DNA of 64,000 bases from a virus (IMGVR_UViG_3300045988_009865:1-64000); one strand, 5' to 3'; shown: positions 57,797 to 64,000, counted from the stretch's first letter. Numbers and translations: made by a program. Notes: generated by a model not told the origin, from the sequence alone.

Positions 57797-59941
57797 ATGA
57801 ACAAAGTACAGATTATTAAAAAGAACGGCTCACTTGAAGAACCTGATATCAAAAAAGTTTTAGCAGCAGTAACTAAGTCAGCTAACAGGGTTGGGTATAA
57901 AGAACTCCCACCAGATGTTACCCAAGCTCTTGAGTCAGCATTTATGAGGATTCTGGTAAAGTCCACTAAGCAGAATAATTTACTCATCTCGGTAAATGAT
58001 ATTCACAGCATCGTTGAAGGTGCTTTGGCAGAAGTCAATCACGAGATTTATGAGTCTTACTCAACATACAGAAATTACCGTAAAGAGGTTGCTCAAAATT
58101 GGGATGAGCTTTACCAAAAGACTAAAGACACACTCTTCTTAGGTGACCGTGAAAACGCTAACTTTGACAGTAGTTTAATTTCTACAAAAGGCTCAATTAT
58201 TCGTGGTTACCTGACTAAAGAAATCTTTAAACAGTACCATTTAACACCAGAGGAACTTGAAGCCATTGAAAAAGGGTTTATCTATATCCATGACTTAAGA
58301 GACCTAATTTTTGGTGGTATCAACTGTTGCCTGTTTGACATTGGTAAAGTACTGAAAGGTGGCTTTGAAATGTCTGGCATCGAATACTGTGAACCGAAAT
58401 CTGTACTGTCAGCCTTACAGGTTATCGGTGATGTAGTTCTTTCAGCAACTGCACAGCAATTTGGTGGTTTTACTTTAGCAGAGATTGATAAGGTGCTTGT
58501 ACCGTATGCTAAGAAGTCTCTACGATATCATGCTGAGAAAGCAGCATCTTACGGTATTCCTAAAGAACATTACCACAATTATGTCATGGAGCAGCTACAG
58601 CTTGAATTAACTCAGGGTTTCCAGTCACTCGAAATGAAACTAAATACTGTACCTTGTAGCCGTGGTGATTTCGCATTTACAACTTTGACATTCGGATTAC
58701 TTGACTCAGATATGTCTAATGAAGACAACCGACTGCAATATATGATTGCAAACACCATTCTTGATGTTCGCATGAATGGACAAGGTAAGAGTAAGAAGCC
58801 TGTTGTATTCCCTAAACTGGTTTATATTCATGACCAGAAGAGACACGATGAGAATATCTGTCAAGGCCAACTGTACAGCAAAGCTATTGAGTGTTGCTCT
58901 AAAGCTATGTATCCAGATTTCTTAAGTGTATCTGGTCATGGTGCTGTAGCAGAGGCTTTTGAGCGTTCTGGCAAGGTAATTTCACCGATGGGTTGCAGAG
59001 CTTTCTTGTCTCCATATCTTAATGAGGATGGGGAAGAGTTCTACGTTGGTCGTGCTAACATTGGTGCTGTATCTTTGAACTTACCAATGATTTACCAGTA
59101 TTCTAAAGAGAATGGTTTAGATTTCTGGAAAGAGCTTGATAAGTACCTAGAAATGATTCGCAGCTTCCATAAGAAACGTTATGAAATGATTGCCAATATG
59201 CCAGCAAGTTCTAACCCTCTTGCATTCACACAAGGCGGTCTGTATAAAGGGACTAAGAAGCCTACTGACAAGGTTGGTTGGGATATTGTGAAGTCCTTCA
59301 CAGCTTCTTTTGGGGTTACTGCTCTTGATGAGTTATCTGTTCTTGCTGAAGGTAAACGACTTCATGAAGTTGGAAGTTCTAGTTTTGCATACGATGTTCT
59401 AGCATACATTAACATGAAAACTGAAGAGTTTAAGAATGAAGATGGCTTCCTGTATGCAGTATATGGCACTCCAGCAGAGTCATTGTGTGGAACTCAGCTA
59501 AAACAGTTCAGAGATATGTTTGGTGTTATTAAAGGCGTTTCTGACAAGGAATACTTTACAAACAGTTTCCATATGAATGTTGCAGCAAACATCTCACCAT
59601 TTGAGAAGCAGGACTTAGAAGAGCCATTCTTCCATATCTGTAGAGGTGGCAGAATCCAGTATGTAAGGGTAGCTAACCCAGAAAACTTACCAGCACTTAA
59701 AAGTTGTATTACCAGAGGTATGTTGAAAGGTTTTTATCAGGGACTTAACTTTGACTTAGCAATCTGCGAACATTGTGGCAACAGACCAAAGGCTGATGTT
59801 GAAGAATGTGAGGTTTGCCATTCACATGACATCTCTGTGATTAACAGAGTGTGTGGGTATCTTGGGTGGACTAAGATTAAAGGTGAATCCCGAATGAATG
59901 ATGCAAAAATTGCTGAGATTCGTGACAGGGTTTCTATGTAA
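57797..59941 (+). CDS. nrdD: anaerobic ribonucleoside-triphosphate reductase (class III)
   Basis: 714 aa; C-terminal Cys cluster CEHCGN...CEVCHS and glycyl-radical motif RVCGYLG. Confidence 0.8.
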   Translation: MNKVQIIKKNGSLEEPDIKKVLAAVTKSANRVGYKELPPDVTQALESAFMRILVKSTKQNNLLISVNDIHSIVEGALAEVNHEIYESYSTYRNYRKEVAQNWDELYQKTKDTLFLGDRENANFDSSLISTKGSIIRGYLTKEIFKQYHLTPEELEAIEKGFIYIHDLRDLIFGGINCCLFDIGKVLKGGFEMSGIEYCEPKSVLSALQVIGDVVLSATAQQFGGFTLAEIDKVLVPYAKKSLRYHAEKAASYGIPKEHYHNYVMEQLQLELTQGFQSLEMKLNTVPCSRGDFAFTTLTFGLLDSDMSNEDNRLQYMIANTILDVRMNGQGKSKKPVVFPKLVYIHDQKRHDENICQGQLYSKAIECCSKAMYPDFLSVSGHGAVAEAFERSGKVISPMGCRAFLSPYLNEDGEEFYVGRANIGAVSLNLPMIYQYSKENGLDFWKELDKYLEMIRSFHKKRYEMIANMPASSNPLAFTQGGLYKGTKKPTDKVGWDIVKSFTASFGVTALDELSVLAEGKRLHEVGSSSFAYDVLAYINMKTEEFKNEDGFLYAVYGTPAESLCGTQLKQFRDMFGVIKGVSDKEYFTNSFHMNVAANISPFEKQDLEEPFFHICRGGRIQYVRVANPENLPALKSCITRGMLKGFYQGLNFDLAICEHCGNRPKADVEECEVCHSHDISVINRVCGYLGWTKIKGESRMNDAKIAEIRDRVSM

Positions 59942-61775: not shown

Positions 61776-62096
61776 ATGAACAAAGTTTATAATACTCGTA
61801 AATTACAGATTTTCGTACTGTGCCAGTTTATGGCTAAAGAGTATAACTACTACTATTGTGGTACAGGGTTCATTAGTGACAATGACGGCTCATATCTACC
61901 ATTTAAAGAGGCTGTAAAACTCTTCAATGAAGAGAAAAGCTCTAAGAAAGATATTGAAAAGGTTAAGCTAACCTACAGCAAGAAAGATAAGAAGATTATC
62001 TGCCTAGATAACTTTGTAAAAGTTACTGGAGAAGCAAAAGAGTTTATGGATGAGAGTGAAATCTCATTTACAAGCATCTTGAAAGTAGCTCAGTAA
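61776..62096 (+). CDS. hypothetical protein
   Basis: 106-aa ORF. Confidence 0.45.
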   Translation: MNKVYNTRKLQIFVLCQFMAKEYNYYYCGTGFISDNDGSYLPFKEAVKLFNEEKSSKKDIEKVKLTYSKKDKKIICLDNFVKVTGEAKEFMDESEISFTSILKVAQ

Positions 62097-62109
62097 ACAG
62101 ATACTATAA

Positions 62110-62134
62110 GGGGACTGTAAAGGTTCCCTTTTTA
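62110..62134 (+). terminator. hairpin AGGGGAC-TGTAAA-GGTTCCC then TTTTT
   Basis: imperfect stem plus T-run. Confidence 0.45.
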
Positions 62135-62147
62135 TTTTGGAGATAAT

Positions 62148-62663
62148 ATGTATCTGTCAAATCTGAAACGTTCTGCTGCAATGTCTGTCCTAAGACTGAG
62201 CTTTGATGAACGTCAAGAGTTCATTGACTCCCACCAATACGACCCTTCTAACTCTAATCACATGATTCTCTGGAATCGTGACAGTACTCGTGAAAGAGCA
62301 CTATTCCGCTATTACCCATATTACACCATAGATAATCTGTATGAATGTTTTGTTGTGAAGAACACCATTGTAGTGCTCAATAAGCTTTGTAGATACACAG
62401 GTAACCAGTCCTTCACATTAGGTCACCACAAGCCTGTTACAAAAGGTGGTGAACATCACTGTGCAAACTGGTTTATCCAGACTAAAGCTGATAATCAGAA
62501 GCAAGGAGATAACCTTCTAAGTACTCCTAAGATGACCTATGAAGAGCAAGAGAAATATATCAAAAATAATATGCCAGATGTGCTTGACAACAACTATACA
62601 GATTTGGCAATATCTCTCCTGTTGAAGTTTGAGACAGTTTATAGGGCAACTTACAATGGCTAA
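62148..62663 (+). CDS. HNH endonuclease-like protein
   Basis: GHHKPVTKGGEHHCANWFIQTKADNQKQG resembles HNH core (HH..P...GG......N). Confidence 0.5.
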   Translation: MYLSNLKRSAAMSVLRLSFDERQEFIDSHQYDPSNSNHMILWNRDSTRERALFRYYPYYTIDNLYECFVVKNTIVVLNKLCRYTGNQSFTLGHHKPVTKGGEHHCANWFIQTKADNQKQGDNLLSTPKMTYEEQEKYIKNNMPDVLDNNYTDLAISLLLKFETVYRATYNG

Positions 62664-62934
62664 AGCAGATTGGGAAATAAAAGACCTAATAAGTGATGCT
62701 GGAAATGGTTGTGAGATGTATATGATTCGTGGTCATGTACCAGACCCATTAGCTCTTGAGATGATTGACCATCACACAAATGGATTCTACAAAGAACTAG
62801 GTGAACCAAATGTTGAACGCACTTGGACAAAACCAGTACCAGATAGCACAGGCAACTGTTCAGTCCTCTATCACATTGTGAATCCACAAAAATGCAAAAC
62901 AGCTATGGCTGTGACATTCGTAACTTTTGATTGA
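62656..62934 (+). CDS. hypothetical protein
   Basis: ATG 62656 (MAKADWEIK...) overlapping upstream stop; track start 62629 is non-ATG. Confidence 0.4.
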   Translation: MAKADWEIKDLISDAGNGCEMYMIRGHVPDPLALEMIDHHTNGFYKELGEPNVERTWTKPVPDSTGNCSVLYHIVNPQKCKTAMAVTFVTFD

Positions 62935-62946
62935 GAGAGAAAAACT

Positions 62947-63828
62947 ATGAAAACATCTATCCGTGTTATAATTCATTCACCGACAAAAGGGTCTCATGAA
63001 GAAGAGTTTAACATCATCCAGTTCCCTTCTGGTGAGATTGGTGGACACTTTTCACAAGAGCTTGTTGACTTTACTGCTCACGCAGCATCATCCATCAACA
63101 ATGTGATTATGATTGTAAAAGGCTATGATAAAGACACATTGTTTGCTGTGGCACTTGCTAAAGAAGCAATTGATGATTTAGTTCCTCATGAATATGCCTT
63201 AAAGACTGTCATCTTTTACTACTTACCAAATGCACGATATGACCGTCACATGTTTAAAGGTGATGCAGCAGCTTTGAAGGTTTTTGCTAAACAGGTTAAT
63301 GCAATGGGGTTTGGTGCGGTCTGTGCAGTTGACCCTCACAGTTATGTGCCAGATAACCTGTTTAACTGCTTCCAAAGTATTCCTCAAAATGAAATTGCAG
63401 TCCACTATGCAAATGACCCACTGGTTGATTACTTAGTAGCCCCAGATGCAGGTGCTTCTAAGAAGATTGCAGAGTCTGCTAAAGAGGTGGATAAACCATA
63501 TATCACAATGTCTAAAGTACGTAACCTTAAGACTGGTGAAATTACTGGTATGCGAATCCTTGATGATGTTGATTTGACAGATAAAACTGTTATGATTCTG
63601 GATGATATCTGTGATGGTGGTCGAACCTTCATAGAAGCAGCTAAACATCTTCGTGAAGCAGGTGCAAAACGTGTAGAACTCTATGTAACACATGGTATCT
63701 TTTCTAAAGGTGTTGAAAACCTTCTTGACAATGGTATTGACCACATCTACACTACAAACTCTTTAGGAGAAGCTAAAGACCGTGGCTTAACACATTATGG
63801 TCAAGTTACTGTAGCAAACCTTGATTAA
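62947..63828 (+). CDS. ribose-phosphate pyrophosphokinase (PRPP synthetase)-like protein
   Basis: 293 aa; PRPP-binding-like loop MILDDICDGGRT; directly upstream of NAMPT-like gene. Confidence 0.7.
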   Translation: MKTSIRVIIHSPTKGSHEEEFNIIQFPSGEIGGHFSQELVDFTAHAASSINNVIMIVKGYDKDTLFAVALAKEAIDDLVPHEYALKTVIFYYLPNARYDRHMFKGDAAALKVFAKQVNAMGFGAVCAVDPHSYVPDNLFNCFQSIPQNEIAVHYANDPLVDYLVAPDAGASKKIAESAKEVDKPYITMSKVRNLKTGEITGMRILDDVDLTDKTVMILDDICDGGRTFIEAAKHLREAGAKRVELYVTHGIFSKGVENLLDNGIDHIYTTNSLGEAKDRGLTHYGQVTVANLD

Positions 63829-63836
63829 AACTTTAT

Positions 63837-63859
63837 AGGGGCTTAAAAGCCCCATTTTG
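63837..63859 (+). terminator. hairpin GGGGCT-TAAA-AGCCCC then ATTTT (weak T-run)
   Basis: between PRPP-synthetase-like and NAMPT-like genes. Confidence 0.45.
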
Positions 63860-63873
63860 AGAGAGATTAAAAG

Positions 63874-64000
63874 ATGACTAAATCACTTTATGCAGTCCCA
63901 GCAGGTTTAAAAGCAGATGCTTACAAATCTGGTCACATTTACCAGTACCCTAGTGCAACAGAATACTTGATGTTCAACCTGACACCACGTAGTGATAAGT
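63874..64000 (+). CDS. nicotinamide phosphoribosyltransferase-like protein (N-terminal fragment; runs off window)
   Basis: GAGAGAG RBS; N-terminus MTKSLYAVPAGLKADAYKSGHIYQYP resembles NAMPT N-terminal D.YK..H..QYP motif. Confidence 0.6.
   Translation, partial: MTKSLYAVPAGLKADAYKSGHIYQYPSATEYLMFNLTPRSDK

Follow-up and report, generated by a model that had tools for sequence, protein, structure and literature searches.

At the end of the viral DNA analysed here, a stretch of 64,000 nucleotides (IMGVR_UViG_3300045988_009865:1-64000, hereafter the window), a gene for a protein resembling PRPP synthetase (Prs) is followed directly by the beginning of a gene for a protein resembling nicotinamide phosphoribosyltransferase (NAMPT). 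The question that this arrangement raises is which reactions the two proteins serve in an infecting phage: whether they make PRPP and NMN, as their family names would have it, or rebuild NAD+ after host defences have destroyed it. A reading made from the sequence alone (the sequence-only reading) had proposed that they form a phage NAD+ salvage or reconstitution pair directed against NAD+-depleting defences, and we followed this up by asking where each protein falls among its relatives, which of its functional residues are kept, and in what genomic setting the pair lies.

A published system offers a direct comparison. Working on genes 79-80 of the BASEL phage Bas63 (Escherichia phage JohannRWettstein), a Felixounavirus, Osterman et al. 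(bioRxiv 10.1101/2024.02.11.579819) reported that the phage lacking them was about 20-fold more sensitive to SIR2-HerA, an effect independent of host pncC or nadR, and that, by metabolomics, ADPR-pyrophosphate (ADPR-PP) accumulates in Bas63-infected cells. They assayed a purified homolog of the first enzyme, from SPbetaL1, with ribose-5-phosphate and with ADP-ribose (ADPR), concluding that proteins of this kind evolved toward the use of ADPR in place of ribose-5-phosphate; a homolog of the gene 80 product, given nicotinamide together with both ADPR-PP and PRPP, yielded NAD+ only. For the enzymes they chose the names Adps and Namat, for the pathway NARP1, and 859 phage genomes, or 4.3% of the set analysed, carried it, with Namat encoded within ten genes of 97% of Adps-clade genes but almost never so near bacterial prs (Osterman et al.). 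[quoted passage not shown]

Applied to the window, the mechanism would run as follows. NAD+-depleting systems of the host (SIR2-HerA, DSR2, type I Thoeris, and SEFIR are examples) split NAD+ into ADPR and nicotinamide; Adps would pyrophosphorylate the distal ribose of ADPR at its 1'' position, using the beta,gamma-pyrophosphate of ATP, with ADPR-PP and AMP as products; and Namat would let nicotinamide displace the pyrophosphate of ADPR-PP to give NAD+ directly, a regeneration that would bypass host NMN adenylyltransferases. Both the catalysis by the window pair and its protective effect against defences would follow by analogy with the published Bas63, SPbetaL1, and ICP1 experiments.

The window is Felixounavirus DNA. 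The region of the pair matches 258 records of phages, every one of the Felix O1 type, with Escherichia phage HMD-P10 closest (96.7%), and 24 kb of the window match the same Felix O1-type group at 95-96%. As in the matched phage records, where it adjoins the nrdD/nrdG cluster on one side and rIIA/rIIB on the other, the pair follows nrdD and nrdG and precedes rIIA/rIIB, and the region is an early/middle metabolic one. For the second gene, which runs past the window end, we turned to a Logan assembly contig, ERR1398254_579 (locus L005), which encodes exactly the same 293-aa first protein as the window and, being identical over the entire overlap (7,054/7,054 nt), was taken as the continuation.

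The first gene, adps, occupies positions 62947..63828 on the + strand and encodes a 293-aa Prs-like protein, as the sequence-only reading had it. Its product matches the Pfam families Pribosyltran (E = 6.4e-11) and Pribosyl_synth (E = 2.7e-9) in its C-terminal half, in both cases past the curated cut-offs, so this is no chance open reading frame. It aligns with Bas63 Adps over 293/293 residues and free of gaps at 77% identity, and with the structurally characterised Adps of ICP1 at 41%. Closer still are two of the entries that Osterman et al. tabulate as Adps, from phages allfine (289/293 identical) and SWJM-02 (287/293), both of which are flagged there as Namat-associated; the Felixounavirus Namats, including the allfine and SWJM-02 counterparts, are in turn listed as Adps-associated in the Namat table of that work.

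To place the protein relative to the housekeeping enzyme, it was scored against a profile built from nine Adps of unrelated phages, with Felixounavirus left out, and against one built from seven bacterial Prs. It scored 225 bits on the Adps profile vs 72 bits on the Prs profile, and E. coli Prs gave the opposite pattern (117 vs 508 bits). Among the NCBIfam models listed, it reached no Prs equivalog cut-off (for PRK01259, a score of 89.5 against a cut-off of 297, with E. coli Prs at 532.6) and passed just one model narrowly, the broad subfamily TIGR01251 (118.3 vs a cut-off of 113). A search of solved structures returned ordinary Prs as the best matches (8e-18), the library holding no Adps chain.

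Functional residues, defined for ICP1 Adps by its structure paper (PMC13586617), were transferred through the ICP1 sequence, taken from the paper's supplement, in one alignment with other Adps and Prs. The catalytic lysine (ICP1 K185, SPbetaL1 K162), whose replacement in K185A and K162A abolished activity in the published enzymes, corresponds in an invariant column to Lys190, encoded at 63514..63516 on the + strand. The motif DDICDGGRT, picked out by the sequence-only reading as a PRPP-binding type of loop, spans residues 219-227 (63601..63627, + strand) and consists of D219/D220 and an Adps-type PP loop, C222-T227; in ICP1 Adps the equivalents of D219/D220 contact the ribose and the PP loop binds the ATP donor (PMC13586617). 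The remaining correspondences run from ICP1 F18, R87, H121, and D161 to F26, R97, H131, and D167, and from D212/D213, D216, and F221 to D219/D220, D223, and F228, so that the acceptor-groove residues F26, R97, H131, D167, D219, D220, and D223 are all kept. A single non-match concerns ICP1 F92, an adenine contact, which aligns with Met102 (Phe103 being adjacent) in a column that varies among other Adps too. The catalytic lysine and the acceptor arginine, histidine, and aspartate are thus common to the window protein, SPbetaL1 Adps (whose partner Namat is solved as 9W5W/9W5X), and ICP1 Adps (PMC12774641; PMC13586617), even at only 30-41% identity between the window Adps and these characterised enzymes.

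The PP loop itself differs between the characterised enzymes and the window protein, being CDGGRT in the window, CDGAAS in ICP1, and SSFGGT in SPbetaL1. Of the seven other Adps in the alignment, all non-Felixounavirus, five share DDICDGGRTF, vs DDICDGAASF in ICP1 and DDMIDTGGT(L) or DDIIDTAGT in canonical Prs; the ribose-5-phosphate loop of Prs, DxxDTGGT, is accordingly replaced in the window protein by DDICDGGRT. At 21-22% identity to Prs, the protein also lacks the Prs N-terminal helix and the C-terminal alpha11-alpha12 (filament/regulatory) module, ending about 19 columns before the C-termini of three Prs, and loss of alpha11-alpha12 is a family signature of Adps (PMC13586617). Judged by these features of its sequence, the first protein belongs with the Adps subfamily and not with housekeeping Prs, and the alternative that would have undone the sequence-only reading at this point, an ordinary Prs, does not agree with its profile scores or its equivalog results.

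The second gene, namat, starts with an ATG at 63874, 45 nt past the adps stop codon and hence well inside the ten-gene distance used for Adps and Namat, and its first 42 codons (63874..64000, + strand) are all that the window holds of this NAMPT-like nicotinamide ADP-ribose transferase gene, whose truncation by the window end had been seen correctly. The fragment by itself matches Pfam NAMPT_N weakly (E = 1.3e-3; 19.4 bits, under the 25-bit cut-off), and because this is sub-threshold the orthologs and the identical contig were used instead. The fragment is identical at 40/42 positions to the N-terminus of Bas63 Namat. On the contig the gene (L005:6928-8709) encodes a 593-aa protein of the NAPRTase family, whose first 42 residues are the same as those in the window, and in window numbering it would end at about 65655. 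Full-length Namat agrees with that of Bas63 at 582/593 positions (98%); among solved structures the nearest is SPbetaL1 Namat (9W5W/9W5X, E = 5.5e-128), vs 4e-50 for Xanthomonas (Xcc) Nampt and about 1e-41 for human NAMPT.

Absence of the NAMPT catalytic residues would have told against the sequence-only reading, and every one checked on the contig is kept. Using the functional residues listed in PMC12774641, SPbetaL1 D13, Y15, F189, R192, D215, H245, R306, and D308 map to D15, Y17, F195, R198, D221, H251 (the catalytic histidine), R327, and D329, and A248, G458-D459, G488-S489, and T496-R497-D498 were mapped as well. Key residues that fall inside the window itself are D15 and Y17, of the nicotinamide site, and K42, of the clamp loop, which match SPbetaL1 D13, Y15, and R40. 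What separates Namat from Nampt is an adenine clamp, present in the former and absent from the latter, whose helix follows the motif GSX-phi-X-phi-X-phi-TRD with an aromatic X (PMC12774641). Beyond the window, residues 488-498 of the contig protein read GSYTYQYMTRD, which fits this motif. The clamp loop provides a stacking residue, either an arginine in third place or a lysine or tyrosine there with a stacking residue after it. The window breaks off after S40-D41-K42 of this loop, and W43 is read from the contig; a lysine followed by a stacking residue is the arrangement described for Bas63 Namat (PMC12774641), whereas SPbetaL1 has an arginine here in place of Lys-Trp. As read from the identical contig, the downstream protein is by its sequence closer to Namat than to Nampt. 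Both proteins also have matches in one PHROG family, phrog_12872 (547 positions, annotated as nicotinamide phosphoribosyl transferase), Adps to positions 53-224 and Namat (as read at L001:7875-9653) to positions 236-534, a pattern suggestive of Adps-Namat fusions in some phages.

Set beside the Bas63 genome (MZ501086, the accession given in the paper's supplement), the window pair comes from the same genus, is set in an unchanged order of genes between nrdD and rIIB, and encodes proteins of the same lengths (293 and 593 aa); in Bas63, nrdD is followed by three small ORFs and then by genes 79 and 80, an order that the window matches. Adps is 77% and Namat 98% identical between the two, and an intergenic hairpin is common to both. 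By sequence and position the pair is the ortholog of bas63_0079/0080, the operon in which NARP1 was discovered. The likeness extends to the other characterised NARP1 enzymes, which, like the window pair, have an Adps-type PP loop, no Prs C-terminal module, and a Namat core with a clamp helix. Orthology, synteny, subfamily placement, and conservation of catalytic and specificity residues are established here, and we infer activity and phenotype from Bas63, SPbetaL1, and ICP1: the pair is almost certainly the core two-gene NARP1 operon of a Felix O1-like phage (Felixounavirus). The proposal of a phage pair that counters NAD+-depleting defences is thereby supported, and of its two versions, the Bas63 work and the Adps and Namat sequence signatures favour reconstitution, from ADPR to NAD+, over salvage. 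NARP1 has already been described in this same genus, with near-identical proteins in the tables of the discovery paper, and there is no new biology in this identification.

The window pair does differ from that of Bas63 in one segment. Over about 750 nt (~62650-63400), spanning the gene for a 92-aa protein upstream of adps and the first ~150 codons of adps, DNA identity falls to 59-79% vs a background of ~93%. In protein terms, the N-terminal 180 aa of Adps are 66% identical to those of Bas63 and the C-terminal 113 aa 96%, and the 92-aa protein is 71% identical to its counterpart. Given this mosaic segment, the Adps N-terminal domain and the 92-aa protein constitute a diverged allele relative to Bas63; the combinations of alleles differ between phages (SP116, for example, has 91% identity over a 2-kb region yet 72% in the 92-aa protein), a pattern in the sequences that indicates repeated recombination. 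The 92-aa protein was also considered as a third component co-evolving with the Adps N-terminus. This idea is unsupported, as the protein occurs solely in Felix O1-like phages, and it is countered as well by the allele combinations differing between phages.

A second peculiarity lies in Namat, where Felix O1-like phages have about 85 aa more than SPbetaL1 Namat. The insertion covers residues ~343-427 (L005:7954-8208, or ~64900-65154 in window numbering, beyond the window), is absent from both the solved SPbetaL1 Namat and NAMPT, and gave tblastn matches in 254 records, all from Felix O1-like phages. Its sequence diverges fast, to 40-45% identity in Moogle-like phages of Citrobacter, and Pfam recognised no domain within it. 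In Adps, the pocket for the adenine of ADP-ribose and the core of the hexamer are both formed by the N-terminal domain. Because of this lineage-only insertion of ~85 residues and the two recombining Adps N-terminal alleles, ~66% identical, one may ask whether Felix O1-type NARP1 is functionally unlike the characterised enzymes, through altered regulation, a different substrate range (e.g., modified ADPR), or escape from a host factor directed against NARP1; we consider such a departure unlikely.

Less probable again, and indeed very improbable, is classical salvage, with a true PRPP synthetase and a true NAMPT making NMN that host NadR or PncC would then turn into NAD+. The family names speak for it, since Pfam, PHROG, and NCBIfam all call these proteins Prs and NAMPT/NAPRTase and the GenBank annotation of close relatives reads likewise. 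The chemistry is also shared: canonical class I Prs (E. coli) and NAMPT (human, Xanthomonas) have the same folds and catalytic chemistry as the window pair, namely pyrophosphoryl transfer from ATP and the joining of nicotinamide to an activated ribose. Against these resemblances stand the SPbetaL1 assays comparing ribose-5-phosphate with ADPR, from which the authors argued for evolution toward ADPR; the exclusive formation of NAD+ by Namat when offered ADPR-PP and PRPP together; and the Bas63 genetics and metabolomics, which contradict it (Osterman et al.). The window proteins themselves point the same way, the first by its place in the Adps subfamily, under all Prs equivalog cut-offs, and the second by its adenine clamp motif. 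Scarcely credible is a role in nucleotide supply, in which the Prs-like enzyme raises PRPP within the nrdAB/nrdDG cluster and its NAMPT-like neighbour is incidental: the position directly downstream of nrdD/nrdG and upstream of rIIA/rIIB would suit it, but the near-obligate pairing with Namat (the 97% figure), the missing regulatory/filament module of Prs, and the fused forms suggested by phrog_12872 all argue against it.

Returning to the NARP1 identification, the form of the operon can be specified further. NARP2 (Nampt and Nmnat, as in KVP40), NARP1-AP, and NARP1-RyDEP serve the same purpose, the restoration of NAD+ during NAD+-directed immunity. NARP2 is recognised by Nmnat and by having no Adps, whereas here an adps gene lies directly upstream of namat; no Nmnat is annotated in the 30-80 kb region of Bas63. 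The extended versions NARP1-AP (Adps-Adpp-Namat, in Vibrio phage Gary) and the RyDEP locus (phage DyoEdafos) have the Adps/Namat core in common with the window, in which, unlike in these, just the 45-nt spacer separates adps from namat. No Macro or RyR Pfam domain was found in the four small proteins flanking the pair, two on either side, and the operon is the plain two-gene form, without a Macro phosphatase (Adpp) or a RyR glycosidase (RyDEP). Since neither Adpp nor RyDEP is encoded in the operon, the phage should stay sensitive to aRES-type defence; we infer that it would not overcome aRES, which makes ADPR-1''-phosphate.

The short hairpin that the sequence-only reading placed between the two genes is indeed there. 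At 63838..63853 (+ strand), within the 45-nt spacer, a perfect 7-bp inverted repeat, GGGGCTT/AAGCCCC, would form a stem-loop GGGGCUU-AA-AAGCCCC, followed by AUUUUG, and the surrounding 55 nt (63826-63880) fold with -12.6 kcal/mol (z = -2.6). The stem is kept in Bas63 and HMD-P10, differences lying mostly in the loop, and the HMD-P10 hairpin has one additional G at the 5' edge of its stem. A terminator scan did not call the hairpin at 63838-63853, because its T-run is too short, and an Rfam search gave no match to it at E <= 1. A weak terminator and an RNA-stabilising element are both possible functions for such a structure.

Upstream of adps, two tightly packed genes on the + strand (62148..62934 in all) are syntenic with bas63_0077/0078. 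The first (62148-62663) encodes 171 aa and matches phrog_3500, the second (62656-62934) encodes 92 aa and matches phrog_4726, both PHROG families being of unknown function, and the stop of the former overlaps the start of the latter by 8 nt. The 171-aa protein, GHHKPVTKGGEHHCANW, has a weak match to an HNH-endonuclease-like family (phrog_2214, E = 2.5e-4). On the 5' side of its gene, the terminator scan called a terminator-like hairpin with a T-run at 62108-62130, which a promoter-like site (62079-62107) overlaps. The 171-aa and 92-aa genes are probably co-transcribed with adps, and their membership in the pathway is only putative; the Bas63 deletion covered genes 79-80 only (Osterman et al.). 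Farther upstream, nrdD also distinguishes the two phages, as that of Bas63 carries an intron with a homing endonuclease and that of the window does not. The window nrdD (57797-59941) is an uninterrupted ORF of 714 aa, and the Bas63 gene (L003:16631-19517) is annotated as two joined pieces with the homing endonuclease gene within, DNA alignment placing 742 extra nt at that interruption relative to the window.

About 4% of sequenced phages owe to NARP1 their survival of NAD+-depleting defences (SIR2-HerA, DSR2, type I Thoeris, and SEFIR, for example). Where the pathway is recognised in a genome, one can predict the host defences that this phage is able to overcome, which helps in choosing therapeutic phages. 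The practical value of the window is one of annotation correction. Records up to 2025, that of HMD-P10 among them, still describe the pair as a ribose-phosphate pyrophosphokinase and a nicotinamide (or nicotinate) phosphoribosyltransferase, and under the NCBIfam model NF006629 Namat is called a nicotinate phosphoribosyltransferase equivalog. Felixounavirus DNA that is nearly identical also turns up in a few records bearing the names of Campylobacter or Staphylococcus phages, a sign of likely mislabelling or contamination.
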